Shown here: in pieces, positions 2,248 to 62,777 of the stretch | How the letters are laid out: each line of letters starts with the position of its first letter | Position numbering within the stretch: the stretch's first letter is position 1 | Assembly (NCBI GenBank): GCA_002255585.1 | Contig: NCBJ01000006.1 | Span: forward strand, 94 to 64,093 | Source: Parcubacteria group bacterium 21-54-25 | GTDB lineage: Bacteria; Patescibacteriota; Minisyncoccia; Phycocordibacterales; Phycocordibacteraceae | Direction of reading: 5' to 3' | DNA length: 64,000 nt | Notes under the pieces: model-generated | What the model was told of the DNA's origin: nothing | The model's input: the letters and a program-made list of their open reading frames with translations, nothing else | Database searches by the model: none | Translations under genes and position numbers: made by a program

Positions 2248-3330
2248 CTACATTTTGGGCGCACAGTTTTGGTTTGTGCATGACGCTTTCAGTAATGCCA
2301 TATCCTTGGCGTCAATAATGCCGTCGTGATTGAGATCACGCGGGTCGCTGGTGCCGCCCTGCACTTTTGTATTTAGGTACGGGGCCAAAAGCAACGCGTC
2401 ATCGCTATCAACATCTCCATCTAAATTCAAATCGCCCAACGGAAATTCCGGCAGAGTAAGGTTCATTGTGTTATTCGTTGTGTTTAAGGAAAAATGGATT
2501 TGATATTGTGCGCCGGCAGTAATAATACCTGATCTGGTTTGATTATTGCTTGTATCATTGAGAAGCCCAAAGAAAACTACAAATGGTACATTCTTAATAC
2601 CTATAAGTGTGAGGGTGTAGAGTCCGGGAACGGTATTCTTGAGGAACAGACCGACTGACGATGTGCCGTTAGACTCTTTAGTTGTGTAGTAACTTGGTCT
2701 TGTGTCTGTGCTTTTTGCTGGGTGATTTAATCCAATTATGTTCCCGGTGGGGTCTTTTAACAACAGCTCTATCTGGGTCGAGGAAGAGTCAATGGCACTA
2801 ACCTGTATTTCCATACTCGGGAACATGCTCGGAAGATTGTGAGTAGCGGTAATTGTTGACGATTGGTACAAACGGAGGGATTTTATGTCTATAGAATGCC
2901 CTGATGCGGTGGTTACCAACCCTATAGACACTGTATGTTTGCCCGGAGAGATGATGCCCGCGGTAGTAATGAGTCCCGTGTTGCGCCACGTTCCACTGCC
3001 AAATTCCCCGGCCGCCCTACCGAATAACACTTTGTCATCAACCATAACCAAGAGCATATCCTGTGGTGATATGTGTACTCCTTTGTACTCGAAGGAAAAA
3101 CCAGCAACTCTTGGACCAAACGAGACGGTTGTAAACATCCACATGGAGTGATCTGCGGTATGTGAAGACGAAGTTGCTACAAGGCTTGTGTTTGCGTCGC
3201 GCTTAACCGACACAGATTGTCCGCCACGCTGAAACATATTATAGTGGTACGCAGCACCCATGGTTCCAAAGATAATTATTGCAAAGCAAAGACTGATGAG
3301 CAGGAACAGCGGCGAGCGCGCGAGCTTCAT
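2248..3330 (-). CDS. Secreted/anchored surface protein with a C-terminal dockerin-like domain
   Basis: 360 aa. The N-terminus is a signal or anchor helix ([21 protein letters not shown]). The C-terminus has two dockerin type-I-like repeats: [20 protein letters not shown] and [19 protein letters not shown]. Confidence 0.6.
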
Positions 3331-3412
3331 GCACTATTACACTAGCACGCGCTTGTCGGGAGCAATGCCACCCCTTGTGCCAAAGGGCGGATACCGCTAC
3401 TATGCGAATACT

Positions 3413-4030
3413 ATGATGAACAATATGGATAACCAGCAAGAACGGGCCTCGTATTTGGTGCCAATGGTTGTGGAAAAGTCACAATTCGGTGAGCGCGCGT
3501 ACGATATTTACTCGCGTCTTCTTCGAGAGCGCATAATTTTTCTCGGCGGGCCTATAGACGACGAGTCGGCAAACCTGATTATCGCCCAGCTACTTTTCCT
3601 TGAGGCCGAAGATCCGAAGAAAGACATTTTCCTATACGTGAATTCTGTTGGCGGATCGGTAACGGCCGGTCTCGCGATTCTCGACACGATGAACCATGTC
3701 AAGCCACACGTCGCAACCGTGTGCGTCGGTATTGCCGCCTCTGCTGGTGCGGTATTGCTCGCGGGCGGTCAAAAAGGCAAGCGCTTCGCGCTCCCGAACG
3801 CCGAAGTAATGATTCACCAGCCATGGGGCGGCGCACAAGGACAAGCAACCGACATAGAAATAACCGCGAAGCACATTATCGCGACGCGCGACCGTTTGAA
3901 TAAAATTCTGGCAAAAGCGACTGGTCAATCACTCGAAAAGATAGGAAAAGATGTCGACCGTGATTTCTTCATGACCGCAGAAGAAGCAAAAAAGTACGGC
4001 ATTGTTGACCAGGTGTACAAAACGAAATAG
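3413..4030 (+). CDS. clpP: ATP-dependent Clp protease proteolytic subunit
   Basis: ClpP motifs are present ([28 protein letters not shown], catalytic region [22 protein letters not shown]). The upstream extension back to 3260 overlaps the divergent gene. The start at ATG 3413 gives a typical ~205-aa ClpP. Confidence 0.9.
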
Positions 4031-4243
4031 CACGCAAGGAAACTCAAAACGGGGTGCTGCAAAGCCGCTGCGCCGGTGCCCGTCACAGGGCTTTTGCGGT
4101 AGTACGTCCTCCGTGCTAGAGTGCCGGTACCGTTTTGGCGGACAGAATCTTGTAATAACCGCCTGCGTCGAGCCTTCTTTTCGATTCGCTACTCAGGAAT
4201 GACTGCATGAAACTGGGGGGCGCGACAGGGCGCACCTTAAATT

Positions 4244-5773
4244 ATGTCGTTAAAATTTGTATTCATACTGCTTGCGCTCTCGGGCGCGGCGGGCATTGCG
4301 CTTGGCTATGTTCTCAGGTGGCTCATTGCGCTTGGGCAGCGCGGTTCGCTCGAGCTCGAAATCAAGCAGCAAATGCTTGATGCGAAGGAGCGGGCAGCGC
4401 GCATCATTACCGAAGCAGAGTCTCGCGTGGAAATCGTCGAAGCCGAGCGACTCGGCACAGTACGCGAGCGCGAAGAAAAGCTACAAAAAACTGAAGACCG
4501 GCTTACAAAAAAAGAGGAGTTTCTCGATGAACGCGAGCACAGTATCGCCGACGAATCTGAAAATGTCCGCGGTCGAGAGCATGAGGCCGCACGTCTTAAA
4601 AAAGAATCCGAAGCGCTTCTACACGAGCGCCGCACTGAGCTTGCGCGTATCGCGCAGCTTTCACAAGACGCAGCACGAGAAGAGCTTATGCGTGATATCG
4701 AGCAGGTACATGAGGACGCATTTCTCGCACGCCTGCAAAAACTCGAAGCGCACGGCAAGGCGCGTCTTGAGGACGCTGCGCGAAATATTCTAATCGCCGC
4801 CATTCACCGTCTTGGAAATGCCGTGAATGCTGATGTTATGACGCTTTCGGTACCTATTCCCTCCGAAGAGGTGAAGGGGAAAATTATCGGCAAAGAGGGG
4901 AGGAACATTAAAGCATTTGAGCGCGCAACCGGCGTCGATGTCATCGTTGACGATGCCCCCGACCGCATCACCCTTTCATCATTTGATCCACTGCGTCGTC
5001 ACATAGCAAAAATTGCACTCGAGGGATTAATTGCTGATGGACGCATCCAACCAGCAAAAATAGAAGACGCGGTGGAGCGTGCCCGTGCTGAAATTATCGA
5101 GACGGTAAAACAAAAGGGCGAGCAAGCGGCGTATGAGGCGGGTGTAGTTGGGCTTGATTCGAAACTTGTTGCGCTCCTCGGACGACTACATTTTCGTACT
5201 AGCTACGGACAAAACGTGTTGCAGCATTCAGTTGAGATGGCCCATATCGCGGGCATGCTTGCAACTGAGCTCGGTGCGAAGGCGACCATCGCGCGCGCAG
5301 GCGCACTGTTGCATGACATCGGAAAAGCAGTGGATCACGAGGTGCAGGGTACTCACGTAGAAATCGGGCGACGCATCTTAGAGAAATTTGGCCTCGATCG
5401 TCGCGTGATTCAAGCGATGCAGTCGCACCATGAAGAATACCCATATGAAACACCCGAAGCAGTTATTGTACAGGTTGCTGACGCCATATCAGGCGGGAGA
5501 CCAGGGGCACGGCGTGATACCGTTGAGCGCTATTTGGAACGCTTGGGTGAGCTTGAAAGACTCGCATCAAGCTTCCCGGGAGTGGAAAAAGTATACGCCG
5601 TACAAGCTGGGCGCGAGATTCGTGTCTTTGTAAATCCTGGGAAAGTATCCGACCTCGCCATGCATAAGATGGCACGTGATTTGGCAGGAAGAATACAGGA
5701 AGAGCTCAAATACCCTGGAGAAATAAAGGTAAATATCATCCGCGAGAATCGTGTTGTAGAGTTTGCGCGGTAA
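4244..5773 (+). CDS. rny: Ribonuclease Y
   Basis: 509 aa. It has an N-terminal TM helix, a coiled coil, a KH domain (GKIIGKEGRNIKAFE) and an HD domain (LLHDIGKAVDHE), which is the canonical RNase Y architecture. Confidence 0.9.
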   Translation: MSLKFVFILLALSGAAGIALGYVLRWLIALGQRGSLELEIKQQMLDAKERAARIITEAESRVEIVEAERLGTVREREEKLQKTEDRLTKKEEFLDEREHSIADESENVRGREHEAARLKKESEALLHERRTELARIAQLSQDAAREELMRDIEQVHEDAFLARLQKLEAHGKARLEDAARNILIAAIHRLGNAVNADVMTLSVPIPSEEVKGKIIGKEGRNIKAFERATGVDVIVDDAPDRITLSSFDPLRRHIAKIALEGLIADGRIQPAKIEDAVERARAEIIETVKQKGEQAAYEAGVVGLDSKLVALLGRLHFRTSYGQNVLQHSVEMAHIAGMLATELGAKATIARAGALLHDIGKAVDHEVQGTHVEIGRRILEKFGLDRRVIQAMQSHHEEYPYETPEAVIVQVADAISGGRPGARRDTVERYLERLGELERLASSFPGVEKVYAVQAGREIRVFVNPGKVSDLAMHKMARDLAGRIQEELKYPGEIKVNIIRENRVVEFAR

Positions 5774-8195: not shown

Positions 8196-8513
8196 ATGAC
8201 TTCGTCGAACATACGAGGCAGTTGCCTATGCGGCGCGGTGACCTTTGAGGTAAACTCGCCATACCACATCATGACTCATTGCCATTGCTCGCGGTGTCGC
8301 AAGAGTACGGGAGCAGGCCACTCGACAAATATTGCTGCTAATTCCGAGAGCATCAGGTGGCTAAGCGGATACGAAAGCATTACCCGCTTCGAGCTTCCAG
8401 GGTCAGAACGCTTCGGCAAATGGTTTTGCAGTCACTGCGGTGGCACTGGTGCAGGCCGGTCCTACCAGAAGACCCTAGATGTTTGGGACGGCCATCCTCC
8501 ACAATCGGCATGA
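8196..8513 (+). CDS. GFA-family (glutathione-dependent formaldehyde-activating / CENP-V-like) zinc-binding protein
   Basis: It has the Cys pattern C-x-C ... C-H-C-S-R-C ... C-x-x-C (SCLCGAVTFE, HCHCSRC, CSHCG). An SD-like GAGGG lies 5 nt upstream of ATG 8196. The ORF track starts at 8175. Confidence 0.7.
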   Translation: MTSSNIRGSCLCGAVTFEVNSPYHIMTHCHCSRCRKSTGAGHSTNIAANSESIRWLSGYESITRFELPGSERFGKWFCSHCGGTGAGRSYQKTLDVWDGHPPQSA

Positions 8514-8615
8514 TATTTGCATGTTATGATTTGGCCTTGCCCGGTGCTCCAATACGACCGTTATTATTGGAACGGTAAACAAGTCAATTATGGAAAATGA
8601 CGGATAGATAGTTGC

Positions 8616-58468: not shown

Positions 58469-58795
58469 ATGTTCGCTCCAGAAGAAGTTCCTAGCATATC
58501 AGTGCAAGAAGCACACCAGCGTTTTATTGGCGAGAAGTGTCTTCTTATAGACGTACGCACTCCGGAAGAATTTGCTGCCGGACACCCTGCGGGCGCACGA
58601 AACATTCCTCTTGCCGAGCTTCCAGCGCACGTGGATAAGCTCACCGAACACCATGAAATTTATCTCATCTGCCAGTCAGGGGGGAGAAGTGTAATTGCGA
58701 CAAATGCTTTGCACGAACGCGGACTCACGCAAGCGATAAACGTTACCGGAGGTTTTCTCGATTGGCAGGGGAAGGGACTTCCCACAGAACAGTAA
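58469..58795 (+). CDS. Rhodanese-like single-domain sulfurtransferase
   Basis: It has the active-site loop CQSGGRS. The flanking LIDVRTPEEFAAGH is typical of rhodanese. Confidence 0.75.
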   Translation: MFAPEEVPSISVQEAHQRFIGEKCLLIDVRTPEEFAAGHPAGARNIPLAELPAHVDKLTEHHEIYLICQSGGRSVIATNALHERGLTQAINVTGGFLDWQGKGLPTEQ

Positions 58796-58867
58796 ACGCG
58801 CAGGCACTTTACGCCCCCTCGTTTCTGTTCGTGAGGGCCTATCGGCCCTCTTTCCTCTCGGCTTGTC

Positions 58868-59518
58868 TCAATCCGAGAGTGATTTTTTGTGTGCTTGCGA
58901 GATGGTGGGGATAAATTGGCGAAACGCGAAAAGTGTAATGAGAGCGTCGACTCCAAGTGAGTAGAGTGGAACGAGTAGGTTATATATTGTCAGCTCTGTC
59001 GTCGCAATAATTTCGAGTACGACAGTCGTTACGTATATAATCCAAAGCAGCCAAGGTTCAGAAAAAGGGTCTAGATACGTTTTATAAAGCGTGGGAATAC
59101 TTATCGCGATGTCAGCGATAATGCTTAATACAAGTGCAGTAAGCGGTTCTTTGGTAATCGCCCAAAGGATGATCGCCAAAATTGCTACAGCAATACAAAA
59201 ACGATCGACCGGAGTCCATAACGCTTTCCCCGCACGAAGCGCGATGACGGCAACAGTACTTGCGCTGAATGCCCCAATGACCGGTATAGTGAGTGACCAG
59301 TCAAGACCTTTGGAGGCTTGTGCCGCCGCTGCAATGGCGTATAAAAGCGCCCAGCCAAACCACGACACCGGATTCGGTCTCGTGTCTTCTCGTAAGACAC
59401 CCCTCACATAAGGGACAACAAGGGCAGTCATGATAATGGCTGCCCCGGTACCCACGATGGTGTGCCAATCGTACATCGCTAGAAAGTATAGCGCGCCCAT
59501 CGCCCAGTATAGACTCAT
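58868..59518 (-). CDS. Hypothetical integral membrane protein (~7 TM)
   Basis: 216 aa and highly hydrophobic. No family is recognised. Confidence 0.5.
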   Translation of the reverse strand: MSLYWAMGALYFLAMYDWHTIVGTGAAIIMTALVVPYVRGVLREDTRPNPVSWFGWALLYAIAAAAQASKGLDWSLTIPVIGAFSASTVAVIALRAGKALWTPVDRFCIAVAILAIILWAITKEPLTALVLSIIADIAISIPTLYKTYLDPFSEPWLLWIIYVTTVVLEIIATTELTIYNLLVPLYSLGVDALITLFAFRQFIPTISQAHKKSLSD

Positions 59519-59585
59519 CCATACAAAGGCTCGAACCTAGGACGGCTCGAAAATAGAACCGTTTTCTGCTATGCTTGCAATATAT

Positions 59586-59658
59586 CCGCCTGTAGCTCAA
59601 TTGGCAGAGCAGCTCCCTTTTAAGGAGAAGGTTGGGGGATCGTGGCCCTCCAGGCGGA
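59586..59658 (+). tRNA. tRNA-Lys (anticodon UUU), 73 nt, no encoded CCA
   Basis: CCGCCTG-TA-GCTC-AATTGGCA-GAGC-A-GCTCC-CTTTTAA-GGAGA-AGGTT-GGGGG-ATCGTGG-CCCTC-CAGGCGG-A. The D-arm is canonical. The T-loop is atypical (ATCG). Confidence 0.75.
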
Positions 59659-59659
59659 C

Positions 59660-60487
59660 ATGAACACATTCAAGGAGCAGTGTCGCACGCTTCGCACGCA
59701 AGGGCACACGCTTCCTGAAATCGTCCGTCTGATCGGACGACCAAAGACCAGTGTTTACTTCCATATAAAAGACATAAGCCTTCCCGCAAAAAAGATTGCG
59801 GAAATCCACAAGGCGTGTGGTGAGCGCATACGACCGTACGCGCTCGCACGCAAAGGCAAGAGCAGTAGGTTGTTTAAACGTGTCGACACCATAACACCCG
59901 AGATGGCACTCCTGCTGGGCCACTTGCTATTTGATGGTGAGATACGTCGAGGTGCGTGCGCATATAGTAATAGAAGTTTGATACTTATAGAGCGAGTCGT
60001 GAAGCTTATGCGCATGCTATACGCATACTCACCGCGCACCCACCTGAATGATGCAACCGGCGTAATGCGGGTCACTTACAATAACGTCGAGCTCGCGGCA
60101 CACCTGCACACGCAGGCAATGTGTCTGCTCGAAACCATCCCATCAGCACCGCAGGCAGTTAAGCGCGAGTTTCTGCGAGCATTCTTTGATGACGAGGGCT
60201 GTATGGACGTGGCTCTTCCAAAACACCGCCGGGTTCGCGGGTATCAAAAGGACGTGCGCGTTCTGGAAATCATCCAGCGGCTACTCGCCGAGTTTGGTAT
60301 TGAGTCGCGCATCGTGCTGCCGAATGAAGTCGTGATACGCGGAAAGGGAAACTTTGAGCGGTTTGAGCGAGAGATAAACTTCTCGCAGGGCGTATGCGTT
60401 AATGGCAAGCGGAGCAATAGTCGATGGAAAGAGTCGCTTGAAAAACGAGTACTGCTCCGGCGGGCAATCGACTCATTCAAAAGCTAA
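59660..60487 (+). CDS. LAGLIDADG-family homing endonuclease (double-motif), free-standing
   Basis: Two LAGLIDADG motifs are present: LLGHLLFDGEI and LRAFFDDEGCM. The ATG lies 2 nt after the tRNA-Lys discriminator base. Confidence 0.7.
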   Translation: MNTFKEQCRTLRTQGHTLPEIVRLIGRPKTSVYFHIKDISLPAKKIAEIHKACGERIRPYALARKGKSSRLFKRVDTITPEMALLLGHLLFDGEIRRGACAYSNRSLILIERVVKLMRMLYAYSPRTHLNDATGVMRVTYNNVELAAHLHTQAMCLLETIPSAPQAVKREFLRAFFDDEGCMDVALPKHRRVRGYQKDVRVLEIIQRLLAEFGIESRIVLPNEVVIRGKGNFERFEREINFSQGVCVNGKRSNSRWKESLEKRVLLRRAIDSFKS

Positions 60488-61473
60488 TACGGGAACAGAT
60501 CGACCGTCTTGCCGTTTGCGTCGAGCAGCCTAACGACCTCGTGTTGACTTCGCCACATGCTCACGTTACGGCCGAGATACACGCGCCAAGTGTTCCCCAT
60601 AAAATTCGTGTCCTGTTGGTGCGCGTCAACACAGCCATTGTAGTTAAGATAGTTCGTAAGGAAGGTTGTACAGGCACTCGTCATGTTTACCGGCGGCGTT
60701 GCAACCAGTGTGCAGCGGTTCAGACTCTGTGCGTAGGTAATGCATGCATCGTCACGAATATAATTAGGACCATAAAATTGTTTTAGCTCATCGTAGGGGG
60801 TGGGGCAGATAAGTGGCAGTGGGGGGTAGAACGATTGGTACTGAGCAAAATACCCAATACATTTATTTTCACGAAACGACGCACCGATGGGAGACCTCCC
60901 GGAGGAAATAATAGCCATATCTCCCGGCGAGAGTTCTATGGGTTGAACGGCGTTGATGAGGCCTGAACGCGGCACCTCCGTACCAAAAGGAATCGTTGCG
61001 CCGGCACCGGTCGCGTCGCTTTGCAGACGCCAACCAGAAATATCGACTGGTCCTGGCGCGTTGGCAGCAACACGTATCGTGACATACTCTTTTGCTGGAT
61101 CGGCGGCACCAGCATCTGAGACATAATGGTTCATAAACACTGTGCCGCGATATGGTGAGGGAGTGCCAAACGCCACCGTCTGCGCCACTTTCTGCGAAAG
61201 AGTGTCCACTTGATTGCCTACTTGTGTTACCTGTTGAGAAATTTGATTGAGGTTTTGCCCGGTAGTGCCGCGCGTTCCCTGCGGAACCGTATAGGAAACT
61301 CCCGGTGCTGTCGGAAAAAATCCAGTGCCGCCCGAGTACGACACCCCTTTTGAAGAAATGTTTGTTGTTAATACTGGCCCAGCAAAAGAAAGGGGTCGTG
61401 TGGGGCCACCGGTAGCAAACCAGACAACAAACACAAACGCGAAGAGGCCGAGAAAGAAGTACGCATCATTCAT
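60484..61473 (-). CDS. Secreted protein with a lamin-tail-domain (LTD)-like segment
   Basis: It has an N-terminal TM or signal segment. The pattern EYVTIRVAANAPGPVDISGWRLQSD...IELSPGDMAIISSG resembles an LTD. The C-terminus is Cys-containing. Confidence 0.45.
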   Translation of the reverse strand: MNDAYFFLGLFAFVFVVWFATGGPTRPLSFAGPVLTTNISSKGVSYSGGTGFFPTAPGVSYTVPQGTRGTTGQNLNQISQQVTQVGNQVDTLSQKVAQTVAFGTPSPYRGTVFMNHYVSDAGAADPAKEYVTIRVAANAPGPVDISGWRLQSDATGAGATIPFGTEVPRSGLINAVQPIELSPGDMAIISSGRSPIGASFRENKCIGYFAQYQSFYPPLPLICPTPYDELKQFYGPNYIRDDACITYAQSLNRCTLVATPPVNMTSACTTFLTNYLNYNGCVDAHQQDTNFMGNTWRVYLGRNVSMWRSQHEVVRLLDANGKTVDLFPY

Positions 61474-62777
61474 AGAGGCATTCTATCAGGTGTCCTTCGA
61501 TTTTTCTCTTGCCGCAAGCGTGTCAATTCTTCGCGCGTTACCGCCGCATCACTCCACGGCGTTTTTGTACCGTGCGGTCCCATGATGAACGGGTCGGTTC
61601 CCTTGCCGGAAACAAGCACCATGTCGTCTTCTTGTGCGAGCGCGAGCGCGACACGAATCGCCTCACGCCGATCCATGATGATCTGTGGCGGTCGCGTCAT
61701 GCCGCGCGCCATCGCGTCAACAATAGCGCGCGGATCTTCGTCGTACGGGTCTTCATTGGTGAGAATGACCTCACCGCATGCTTCGTCGGCAACGCGACCC
61801 ATGGCTGGCCGTTTCCACACATCGCGTCCACCGCCGGTATTACCCAGAACACAAATTTTTCGTCGATTTGGGAATGCGCTATAGAGGGCAGAAAGCGAAT
61901 CCGGTGTGTGTGCATAGTCGACCACCACCAAAAAATCTTGACCCTCCTCTATGCGCTCAACACGGCCAGGGATATGGGAAAGTGTGCTGAGTGCTTGCGC
62001 CGCGGTTGTCACTGGCACGCCAAACGCCGCACAAAGTTTTATTGCAGCAAGCGCGTTGAGCGCATTAAATACACCTGGCAACGGAAGGGCGATTGGTACC
62101 TGCGCATATTCAAAAGATACGTGCGCATCATCTGCAACAAGCTTCGTAAGCTCCTGCGCATCAAAACCAATTGCGCGCGGTACGCGCGCCTTCAGAAACG
62201 CGTTTGTCTCGGGAGTGTCGCGGCTGGCTACCAGTACGCGTGTCGGTTTTGTGGAGCATTCAAGCGCTCGTACAATTGAGCGCTTTGCCGCAACATACTT
62301 TTCAAATGAACCGTGTCGCTCGATATGCTCGCGCTGGATATTGGTTACGACCAACCCATCGAGTGCGAGAAACTGGTGGCGGTATTGCAGCACCGCTTCG
62401 GACGTTATCTCAACTACCACGTGTGTGCAGCCAGCAGCAAGCGCTCGATGCATGAACGCCTGCATGAAACCGCGACCTGGCGTCGTCATTTTAAAACGGT
62501 TTGGCTCGCTTTCCTCACCAATCGCAAACCGTATTGTTGAAGCAAGCGCCACCTTTTTTCCAGAGGCGGTAAGAATTGCAAAAAGCATTTCAGCGACGGT
62601 TGATTTTCCTTTCGTGCCGGTTACCCCCATCACTATCAGGCGGCGGGCAGGAAAGCCATAGGAAAGTGCCGATAAAAAAGCGAGCGCGCGATGGTAGAGT
62701 GGCAGGAGCGGGCGCACCACCGGTTCAGGTAGTATTTTTTTTAATACACGCACAATTAGGGGGGCACCTTCGTACAT
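61470..62777 (-). CDS. murE: Mur ligase, probably UDP-MurNAc-L-Ala-D-Glu:2,6-diaminopimelate/L-Lys ligase
   Basis: The Mur ligase P-loop is VTGTKGKSTV. The central and C-terminal domains are present. Assignment as MurE rather than MurF rests on overall pattern and is not certain. Confidence 0.65.
   Translation of the reverse strand: MYEGAPLIVRVLKKILPEPVVRPLLPLYHRALAFLSALSYGFPARRLIVMGVTGTKGKSTVAEMLFAILTASGKKVALASTIRFAIGEESEPNRFKMTTPGRGFMQAFMHRALAAGCTHVVVEITSEAVLQYRHQFLALDGLVVTNIQREHIERHGSFEKYVAAKRSIVRALECSTKPTRVLVASRDTPETNAFLKARVPRAIGFDAQELTKLVADDAHVSFEYAQVPIALPLPGVFNALNALAAIKLCAAFGVPVTTAAQALSTLSHIPGRVERIEEGQDFLVVVDYAHTPDSLSALYSAFPNRRKICVLGNTGGGRDVWKRPAMGRVADEACGEVILTNEDPYDEDPRAIVDAMARGMTRPPQIIMDRREAIRVALALAQEDDMVLVSGKGTDPFIMGPHGTKTPWSDAAVTREELTRLRQEKNRRTPDRMPL

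Follow-up and report, generated by a model that had tools for sequence, protein, structure and literature searches.

Homing endonucleases (HEs) of the LAGLIDADG superfamily cleave both strands of DNA site-specifically at a long target of about 20 bp, and leave 4-nt 3' overhangs. I-DmoI, the monomeric enzyme encoded in an archaeal 23S rRNA intron, and the HE domains of the archaeal VMA and PI-PfuI inteins hold two LAGLIDADG domains in one chain. Free-standing LAGLIDADG HEs have rarely been reported in bacterial chromosomes, and we found none described as dedicated to the flank of a tRNA gene. Here we analyse such a gene, which follows tRNA-Lys(UUU) in a stretch of 64,000 nucleotides, called the window below, from Parcubacteria group bacterium 21-54-25 (contig NCBJ01000006.1 of assembly GCA_002255585.1, positions 94 to 64,093). 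Its predicted protein likewise has two LAGLIDADG domains in one chain; as in I-DmoI, one motif helix ends in an Asp and the other in a Glu. Unlike I-DmoI and the intein enzymes, it lies outside any intron or intein and has an N-terminal helix-turn-helix (HTH) extension of about 65-75 amino acids (aa); its sequence identity to them is below 20%, and its home is the flank of a bacterial tRNA-Lys. The gene probably encodes an intact, still or recently mobile free-standing HE of a family dedicated to tRNA-Lys(UUU), monomeric and I-DmoI-like with the HTH added.

Other described systems share parts of this arrangement. SegB of phage T4 and the free-standing HEs of "intronless homing" have their gene in a tRNA region, co-inherited flanking markers and presence/absence polymorphism (PMC2330249; PMC3984707). 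SegB is a GIY-YIG enzyme of a phage, whereas the window HE is a LAGLIDADG protein of a cellular chromosome, abuts one specific tRNA at single-nucleotide precision, and is probably expressed through the promoter and 3' processing of that tRNA. In collaborative (trans) homing, of which F-CphI beside the intron-bearing psbA of cyanophage S-PM2 and T4 mobE/I-TevIII are examples, the HE gene also stands outside the intron (PMC6083498; PMC2790892; PMC3984707). In bacteria of the Candidate Phyla Radiation (CPR), LAGLIDADG genes are described in 16S and 23S rRNA insertions and introns, and tRNA is unmentioned (PMC11270868). These genes are like the window HE in phylum-level host group, in superfamily and in the presumed homing into a highly conserved RNA gene. 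They differ in lying inside the 16S/23S insertions, while the window HE stands free at tRNA-Lys. The published CPR LAGLIDADG work that we found concerns rRNA insertions only (PMC11270868), and in the literature on LAGLIDADG proteins in Parcubacteria, in CPR or with tRNA we found no description of an HE abutting a tRNA gene.

Is the HE gene tied to tRNA-Lys(UUU) outside the window as well? A database search (clusters at 90% identity) returned 639 homologues at E<=1e-3, and at 50% identity there are 86 clusters with E<1e-30. The top listed homologues are 52-63% identical to the window protein, and nearly all are full length at about 276 aa. Among the matches listed, those carrying a source name come from Patescibacteria (Kaiserbacteria, Paceibacterota, Minisyncoccota). 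A scan with one genome per GTDB species gave 80 HE loci in metagenome-assembled genomes of Patescibacteria, with 34-62% protein identity. In 75 of these 80 loci the ORF is immediately preceded by a tRNA-Lys(UUU) gene on its own strand. Of the five exceptions, three are truncated by a contig end and two are the distant relatives L079 and L080 (L numbers are locus labels), to which we return below. By sequence and neighbourhood, this is a previously undescribed family of hundreds of predicted HEs, dedicated to tRNA-Lys(UUU).

The junction between tRNA and open reading frame (ORF) is also conserved. It was counted in 80 loci carrying the HE ORF (HE+ loci) with the tRNA in view, namely the tRNA-bearing loci of the scan, the metagenome loci L092, L107, L114 and L174, and the window. 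Discriminator, C and start codon read A-C-ATG in 57 of them. The HE starts exactly 1 nt after the discriminator in 60/80, and the remaining spacers measure 0-86 nt. Empty sites mostly read A-C-A after the acceptor stem. This conserved abutment of tRNA and HE suggests an expression device. Two short ORFs without detectable HE similarity were seen at the same A-C-ATG junction after tRNA-Lys (L084, 1407-1592; L083, 566-610). They may have been left behind by lost HE genes or have arisen by chance.

Across a class-level radiation the locus keeps one gene order: polA, a holA-like gene, tRNA-Lys with the ORF, the gene of a 329-aa protein, a Mur-ligase-like gene and ruvA. Metagenome contigs were scanned with a tRNA-Lys(UUU) pattern that ignores the downstream sequence, which gave at least 120 loci. 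HE sequence is present in six of them: L092, L107, L114 and L174 have it intact downstream of the tRNA, and the other two are L150 and L081. About 49 further loci have these flanking genes without the HE (HE-less loci), so that among the loci listed the ORF occurs in only about 6 of about 55 syntenic ones. When empty and occupied loci are aligned, the difference is the ORF alone. For example, L131 reads ...GGGCGCAC^CAACTAATAACTAAACG, and L006 has 821 nt (ATG...TCCTT) at the caret; L109 and L017 give the same result. In both pairs the ORF and nothing else is present or absent between the tRNA 3' end and the gene that follows. L109 and L131 are clean empty loci in the orientation of the window; L190 and L197 are HE-less too, but their tRNA is inverted relative to the flanks. 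On the tree of the host holA-like protein, loci with and without the HE are intermingled, apart from two deeper clades in which every locus lacks it. Decayed copies were also found: L081 keeps the N-terminal 80 aa only, L063 has an in-frame stop, and L069 a frameshift. A homing-type element is recognised by just this combination of empty, occupied and decaying alleles at a single exact position. The proposed cycle is that the enzyme would cut tRNA-Lys loci lacking the HE gene, and that recombinational repair from an HE+ copy, e.g. after DNA uptake, would copy the ORF into the site. Such repair would often copy the linked tRNA allele and promoter element too, and loss and decay would regenerate empty sites.

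A first-pass annotation of the window had left three options: a domesticated endonuclease, a mobile one, or the remnant of a mobile cassette. The ORF-only polymorphism, the decayed copies and the HE-specific markers described below speak for the mobile one, and a remnant is wrong for the window. Domestication was favoured at first in our analysis, on account of the 75/80 adjacency, the synteny and the PolA-like identity, and was downgraded after the tRNA-pattern scan revealed many exact empty sites. Could a former HE have been kept as an HTH-bearing regulator, or as a factor of the tRNA-Lys locus or its transcript, that is inherited vertically and patchy through repeated loss? The mean pairwise identity of the HE (0.55) is indeed similar to that of PolA (0.59) and of the Mur ligase (0.58), the synteny spans the radiation just mentioned, host clades are broadly mirrored in the HE tree, no more than 3 degenerate copies turned up, and the conserved HTH together with the HE-specific box beside the promoter could form a regulatory pair. 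We nevertheless regard domestication as unlikely, because most sampled relatives of identical synteny lack the HE gene, sisters of HE+ genomes included. Moreover, empty and occupied alleles differ by precisely the ORF; its two predicted catalytic acidic residues never vary in the alignment, in contrast to WhiA-type proteins; the ORF is the fastest-diverging segment among close hosts; and distant relatives show a layout typical of collaborative homing.

The mobile HE and its surroundings in the window are laid out in Table 1. ARAGORN calls tRNA-Lys(ttt) at 59586-59659, and the Rfam model RF00005 covers the tRNA end to end without insertion (E=1e-10). The anticodon TTT is at 59619-59621, the acceptor stem ends at 59657, the discriminator is A59658, and the boundary reads ...CAGGCGG-A-C-ATG. 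The ORF listing extends the HE frame to an in-frame GTG at 59642, inside the tRNA. Homologues do not use it and all begin at the ATG, which places the HE start at 59660. The first-pass annotation had put this start 2 nt downstream of the tRNA, and the gap is in fact the single C59659. Its other readings of the locus hold: the two LAGLIDADG motifs LLGHLLFDGEI and LRAFFDDEGCM at aa 85-95 and 172-182, the intact tRNA without encoded CCA (an uninterrupted cloverleaf by ARAGORN and RF00005), this tRNA as the only plus-strand one of the six that ARAGORN finds in the window, and an ORF free of intron and intein. The three checks it had proposed gave these results: no Rfam intron family matches around the ORF (58500-61500, E<=10), relatives with tRNA-Lys and no ORF exist (e.g. 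L109, L131), and the catalytic residues D92 and E179 are kept.

Table 1. Coordinates of the tRNA-Lys(UUU)/HE locus in the window.
Feature	Position	Strand	Description
HE-specific 5' element and candidate promoter	59554..59585	+	TAGAACC at 59554-59560; putative extended -10 TGCTATGCT at 59567-59575; then 10 nt to tRNA nt 1
tRNA-Lys(UUU)	59586..59658	+	uninterrupted, CCA not encoded; ARAGORN, Rfam RF00005 56 bits, all stems paired
T-loop ATCGTGG	59639..59645	+	unusual A54/U58 where T54/A58 expected
Single C59659 between discriminator and ATG	59659..59659	+	conserved tRNA/mRNA junction A-C-ATG
Predicted free-standing HTH-LAGLIDADG HE gene	59660..60487	+	275 aa, intact; Pfam, homologues, alignment, structure model, fold search, ORF-only indel
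N-terminal extension, aa 1-64	59660..59851	+	three-helix HTH, then a long helix; model helices 3-13, 18-25, 29-36 and 43-64
LAGLIDADG motif 1 LLGHLLFDGEI	59912..59944	+	aa 85-95; predicted catalytic D92 at 59933-59935
LAGLIDADG motif 2 LRAFFDDEGCM	60173..60205	+	aa 172-182; predicted catalytic E179 at 60194-60196

The neighbours of the HE are housekeeping genes (PolA, holA-like, Mur ligase, RuvA). A defence or phage origin was rejected, since neither the HE nor its neighbours have a PADLOC or PHROGs match. The convergent ORF at 60484-61473 on the minus strand (329 aa) has a weak Lamin-tail-domain match only, and its stop overlaps the HE stop by 4 nt; it belongs to cluster c4, which is kept beside the tRNA-Lys locus across the clade.

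Might the gene after all belong to a conventional intron or intein that was overlooked? The distant relatives described below do sit physically beside a group I intron. In the window, though, the Rfam scan of 58500-61500 gave no intron or other RNA family at E<=10 besides the tRNA, which is uninterrupted. The HE stop overlaps the stop of the convergent gene, and therefore there is no space for a ribozyme or intron, and the alignment of empty and occupied loci gives an ORF-only insert. No Hint or intein family is among the Pfam matches of the ORF, which begins right after the tRNA, and the NCBIfam matches to intein-containing proteins cover the endonuclease part only. An intron context and an intein-associated endonuclease were thus both rejected, and we give a missed intron or intein almost no credence. 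With the same scan free of introns, the window itself does not hold a collaborative homing pair either.

Does the free-standing gene encode a likely active enzyme? Pfam LAGLIDADG_3 (PF14528) matches residues 167-239 with E=9e-11. In an alignment of 20 homologue sequences D92 and E179 are invariant. So are H88, F91 and G93 in motif 1 and F175, F176, D177, D178, G180 and C181 in motif 2. The invariant columns also include the blocks HLxFDG, FFDDEGC, RGYQK and PNE, and the C-terminal FSxGVxxNGxRxNSxWK...EKR. An AlphaFold (AF2) model built on this alignment has a mean predicted local distance difference test score (pLDDT) of 89. It shows an N-terminal HTH, a long helix and then two alpha-beta-beta-alpha-beta-beta-alpha domains, with each LAGLIDADG motif at the C-terminal end of a helix and beta-strands next to it. 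In a Foldseek search of the PDB with this model, the leading matches, with probability 1.0, are intein endonuclease domains (TliVMA, PI-PfuI) and I-DmoI; the template modelling (TM) score of the I-DmoI match is 0.70 (on target). The PDB search by sequence alone gave marginal matches only, and the fold search was required. A profile search aligns motif 2 on FIKGLYVAEGD of I-DmoI, the motif containing E117, and by manual count on this alignment E179 corresponds to E117. By its motifs and modelled fold, the protein is a member of the LAGLIDADG superfamily. It is predicted to have all the features expected of an active monomeric LAGLIDADG endonuclease, plus a module of DNA-binding type.

The N-terminal part gives fainter signals. 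HTH_20 matches residues 8-37 weakly and below threshold (E 0.036), and the ArsR-type HTH matches in the PDB are also weak. From the model, the N-terminal HTH is presumed to be an extra DNA-binding module. A segment elsewhere in the window (8462-8605, plus strand) shows weak similarity to this region (34% over 61 aa, E=0.017) and is possibly an unrelated HTH protein.

WhiA (DUF199) also combines a LAGLIDADG double domain with an HTH and is a lower-ranked Foldseek match. WhiA has lost its catalytic residues and has the HTH C-terminally, and its gene is fixed in the hosts. In the window HE, by comparison, the acidic residues are invariant in the alignment, the HTH is N-terminal, and the gene is patchy, being absent from most syntenic relatives; a WhiA-like domesticated regulator was rejected on these grounds.

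There is a further question of concern, how a gene that starts one nucleotide after a tRNA could be expressed. Many HE+ loci carry a 5' element directly before tRNA nt 1, with the consensus T(A/C)GAACC-N3-RTNTGNTANNAT-ATTAAGGYA. By a strict pattern it is present in 23 HE+ loci and in 0 of about 49 HE-less syntenic loci (among the loci listed), and by a looser pattern in about 26-30 of 54 HE+ loci. It is found equally in both orientations of the locus and in many host clades, metagenome HE+ loci included. The 3' part of the window copy has diverged. Within that copy, TGCTATGCT matches TGn-TAnnnT and probably acts as an extended -10 promoter. Side observations at the 5' end concern L011, where at about 2867-2926 a ~43-nt tandem duplication (tRNA promoter plus degenerate tRNA nt 1-25) lies just upstream of the real tRNA-Lys, and L012 and L154, which have similar degenerate 5'-tRNA fragments.

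The tRNA/HE junction itself has no room for a Shine-Dalgarno (SD) signal or a promoter. Among the 45 ORFs of at least 150 aa in the window, only 3 have an SD-like motif, and -10-like TANNNT hexamers are enriched 5-9 nt before the start codons (2.6 per position vs 0.7 background). Since SD motifs are scarce and -10-like boxes lie near the starts, leaderless mRNAs appear common in this genome. Several divergent HE members in which a spacer is present have, a short way ahead of the ATG, a -10-like box (e.g. L059, L077, L062 and L174). The simplest reading of these patterns is a co-transcript of tRNA and HE ORF from which processing makes a leaderless mRNA. One RNA would start from the extended -10 promoter 10 nt before the tRNA; RNase Z-type 3' processing after the discriminator of the CCA-less tRNA would then leave an mRNA beginning C-AUG, and this mRNA would be translated without a leader, apparently the case for many genes of this SD-poor genome. 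In mitochondrial "tRNA punctuation" and in bacterial tRNA-mRNA co-transcripts such as the tufB operon, tRNA 3' processing also makes the 5' end of an mRNA. Unlike in those cases, the window ORF lies 1 nt after the discriminator in a bacterium, and the cut itself would yield a leaderless mRNA.

The tRNA-Lys locus behaves as a small cassette that has been repeatedly rearranged. Relative to the conserved flanks, the tRNA is in orientation A in 42 and B in 27 HE+ loci, and in A in 15 and B in 24 HE-less loci. Between the close relatives L197 and L010 the inversion is confined to the ~80-bp tRNA, and L190 vs L006 is a further case of an orientation difference. In L150 the tRNA (4907-4980, minus strand) and the HE ORF (from 5081, plus strand) are divergent, with the HE 100 nt upstream of the tRNA. 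The HE-specific 5' element, together with the tRNA variants described below, suggests that promoter element, tRNA and ORF form one cassette.

What is the target of the enzyme? The distant relatives give a clue. In L080 (38% identity, labelled Omnitrophota) a 266-nt group I intron interrupts the anticodon loop of the tRNA-Lys(UUU) gene at 2769-3109 (Rfam RF00028, 92.5 bits; ARAGORN with introns agrees). The HE ORF stands just upstream of this tRNA, between two ~40-bp copies of the tRNA 5' half. A search with the L080 protein revealed a sister subfamily of roughly 60 proteins above 50% identity. The loci L201-L204, which are from Omnitrophota too, all have the order rpsB-tsf-pyrH-frr-[HE]-[tRNA-Lys(UUU) with group I intron]. 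Their introns (RF00028, 79-102 bits) are again in the anticodon loop (L201, 3397-3730; L202-L204, around 3325-3760), and L202-L204 have, as L080 does, a degenerate copy of the tRNA 5' half before the HE ATG. The introns in these relatives are ORF-less, and the HE ORF lies outside. In L079 (34% identity) the order is reversed: the tRNA (2693-2961) has a ~197-nt anticodon-loop insertion, and the HE ORF follows from 2971, 9 nt later. ARAGORN calls this tRNA Asn-GTT, and by eye the exon junction CTT^TTAA gives Lys-UUU. The L079 intron was called by ARAGORN only and not detected by Rfam at E<=1, and the locus probably has the collaborative-homing layout. As a separate observation, archease and RtcB RNA ligase genes lie immediately downstream of the intron-bearing tRNA-Lys in L203 (3781-5645) and L204 (3930-5795).

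L080, L201-L204 and L079, with the proviso that the L079 intron is an ARAGORN call, share with collaborative homing a free-standing HE beside a target gene with an ORF-less intron. They differ from the described cases in the target gene, a tRNA, and in the enzyme family, and no intron is present in the window or the main Patescibacteria group. Group I introns of bacterial tRNAs are known in Leu-UAA, fMet, Ile-CAU and Arg-CCU. We know of none in a bacterial Lys-UUU gene, and a literature search for group I introns in tRNA-Lys found no Lys-UUU case. The Omnitrophota layout argues that the cognate target of the family is the tRNA-Lys(UUU) gene. The subgroup of the window, being without intron, must then be protected in another way, either by interruption of a site spanning the tRNA 3' end or by tRNA variants.

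Are the HE-linked tRNAs different from the others? Compared with the HE-less consensus, they differ on average at 15.1 of 75 positions, and HE-less tRNAs of the same pattern at 8.6. With host distance measured on the holA-like protein, HE+/HE+ pairs differ at 12-16 of 60 core positions and HE-less pairs at 7-10, in every distance bin, the closest hosts included. The excess is in the anticodon stem (29-31/39-41), the T stem (50/64), the T loop (54 and 58-60), and at 15/48 and 7/66. The stems are 100% paired save for a G.A at 27-43 that is common to both sets; thus the changes are compensated, and the HE-linked tRNAs look functional. A54, in place of the near-universal T54, is found in 19/44 HE-linked tRNA-Lys vs 1/48 HE-less (Fisher p=1e-6), and in 19/44 vs 1/14 within the HE-bearing clade (p=0.02). 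It is scattered over the HE tree, so that it arose repeatedly. This diversity of the HE-linked tRNAs might reflect selection for resistance to the linked nuclease, error-prone repair, or the hitch-hiking of foreign alleles.

The first of these three leads to a drive with an immune allele. Here the HE would recognise DNA inside tRNA-Lys (T-arm and/or anticodon arm) and the linked tRNA allele would confer immunity, so that a cassette of promoter, resistant tRNA and HE would replace sensitive alleles, and an arms race would diversify both the tRNA gene and the enzyme. The pairwise excess and its paired positions fit such a race, as do the repeated origin of A54, nearly absent without the HE, the rapid divergence of the HE among close hosts, the HE-specific 5' element that marks the cassette, and the relatives, which protect the same tRNA gene by an anticodon-loop intron. 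On the other hand, 25/44 HE+ tRNAs keep the canonical T-loop and 30/44 keep C31-G39, and no single immunity substitution common to all 44 HE-linked tRNAs was found. Nor does HE distance predict how much the tRNAs differ (rho 0.02-0.19). A recurrent break whose repair is mutagenic could raise tRNA diversity too, and so could relaxed constraint, if a second tRNA-Lys(UUU) copy exists elsewhere. We therefore put this drive forward only tentatively, as a possibility that we rather doubt. The same reserve applies to the proposal that promoter, tRNA allele and HE are a self-immune gene-drive cassette in which each HE lineage would travel with an uncut tRNA allele.

The more general view of a still or recently mobile HE must itself be weighed against its mode of inheritance, and several observations count against it. 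The more alike the flanks of two loci are, the more alike are their HEs, in a monotonic relation (Pearson 0.61-0.74); in the HE tree most members cluster with others of their host clade and orientation; and neither the identity comparisons nor the HE tree gave a clear case of transfer between distant hosts. Repeated loss of a vertically inherited gene could yield much of the patchiness. The HE-less sample is limited to the at least 120 listed loci and to tRNAs of one pattern. The classic homing cycle would lead one to expect more degenerate copies than the 3 in about 87 seen here, and their rarity could mean that the host benefits. As to the target, no conserved half-site beyond A-C-A was seen downstream of the tRNA acceptor stem in the empty alleles, and therefore a junction-spanning target has one conserved half only; if the target is inside the tRNA, intronless HE+ genomes would need some protection against cutting themselves. 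The one-nucleotide 5' extension, C-AUG, may lower leaderless initiation. Finally, we infer transcription and processing, cleavage activity and its target, and homing from sequences and a model.

The relation between HE and flank identity is nevertheless compressed. HE identity is 0.52 where PolA is about 0.5 and the holA-like protein about 0.27, and 0.66 where they reach 0.83 and 0.81, and in comparisons of close hosts none of the four flanking genes diverges as fast as the HE. For example, L020 and L055 (compared over 2850-4400) have the same tRNA core (60 positions) and 5' element, letter for letter, and their downstream flanks agree at 75-83%, while positions 3000-3650 of the HE ORF are only 50-60% identical in nucleotides. 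The sharp rise of identity near 3650 looks like a recombination breakpoint inside the ORF. Either related genomes have exchanged old HE lineages, or part of the protein has evolved very fast; the pattern fits both. Horizontal transfer as a conclusion from the distance comparisons was set aside, since the compressed yet monotonic relation fits lineage reassortment and rate heterogeneity alike.

What does the finding mean for this family and its hosts? The family is spread over two uncultivated phyla and comes in three layouts, with the HE abutting an intronless tRNA, after an intron-bearing tRNA, or before one. It therefore offers a natural series on how endonuclease and intron join or part, and on how a genome shields the target that it carries itself. 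For practical use, its proteins supply new LAGLIDADG scaffolds of compact size, to which an HTH module has been added and whose target can be guessed. Whether tRNA processing forms an mRNA 5' end can be tested at the single-nucleotide tRNA/ORF junction, in a bacterium that apparently relies on leaderless mRNAs. The HE-linked tRNA genes are about twice as diverse as the others, which suggests that core RNA genes can be moulded in their evolution by selfish nucleases. If the self-immune cassette is true, the arms race would force an essential tRNA gene through repeated compensated stem swaps and even the replacement of T54/A58, and other lineages would have solved the same immunity problem by a group I intron in the anticodon loop. 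Bacteria would then also have a gene that owes its leaderless mRNA to tRNA 3' processing, and a selfish nuclease would be measurably driving the sequence evolution of a core translation gene.

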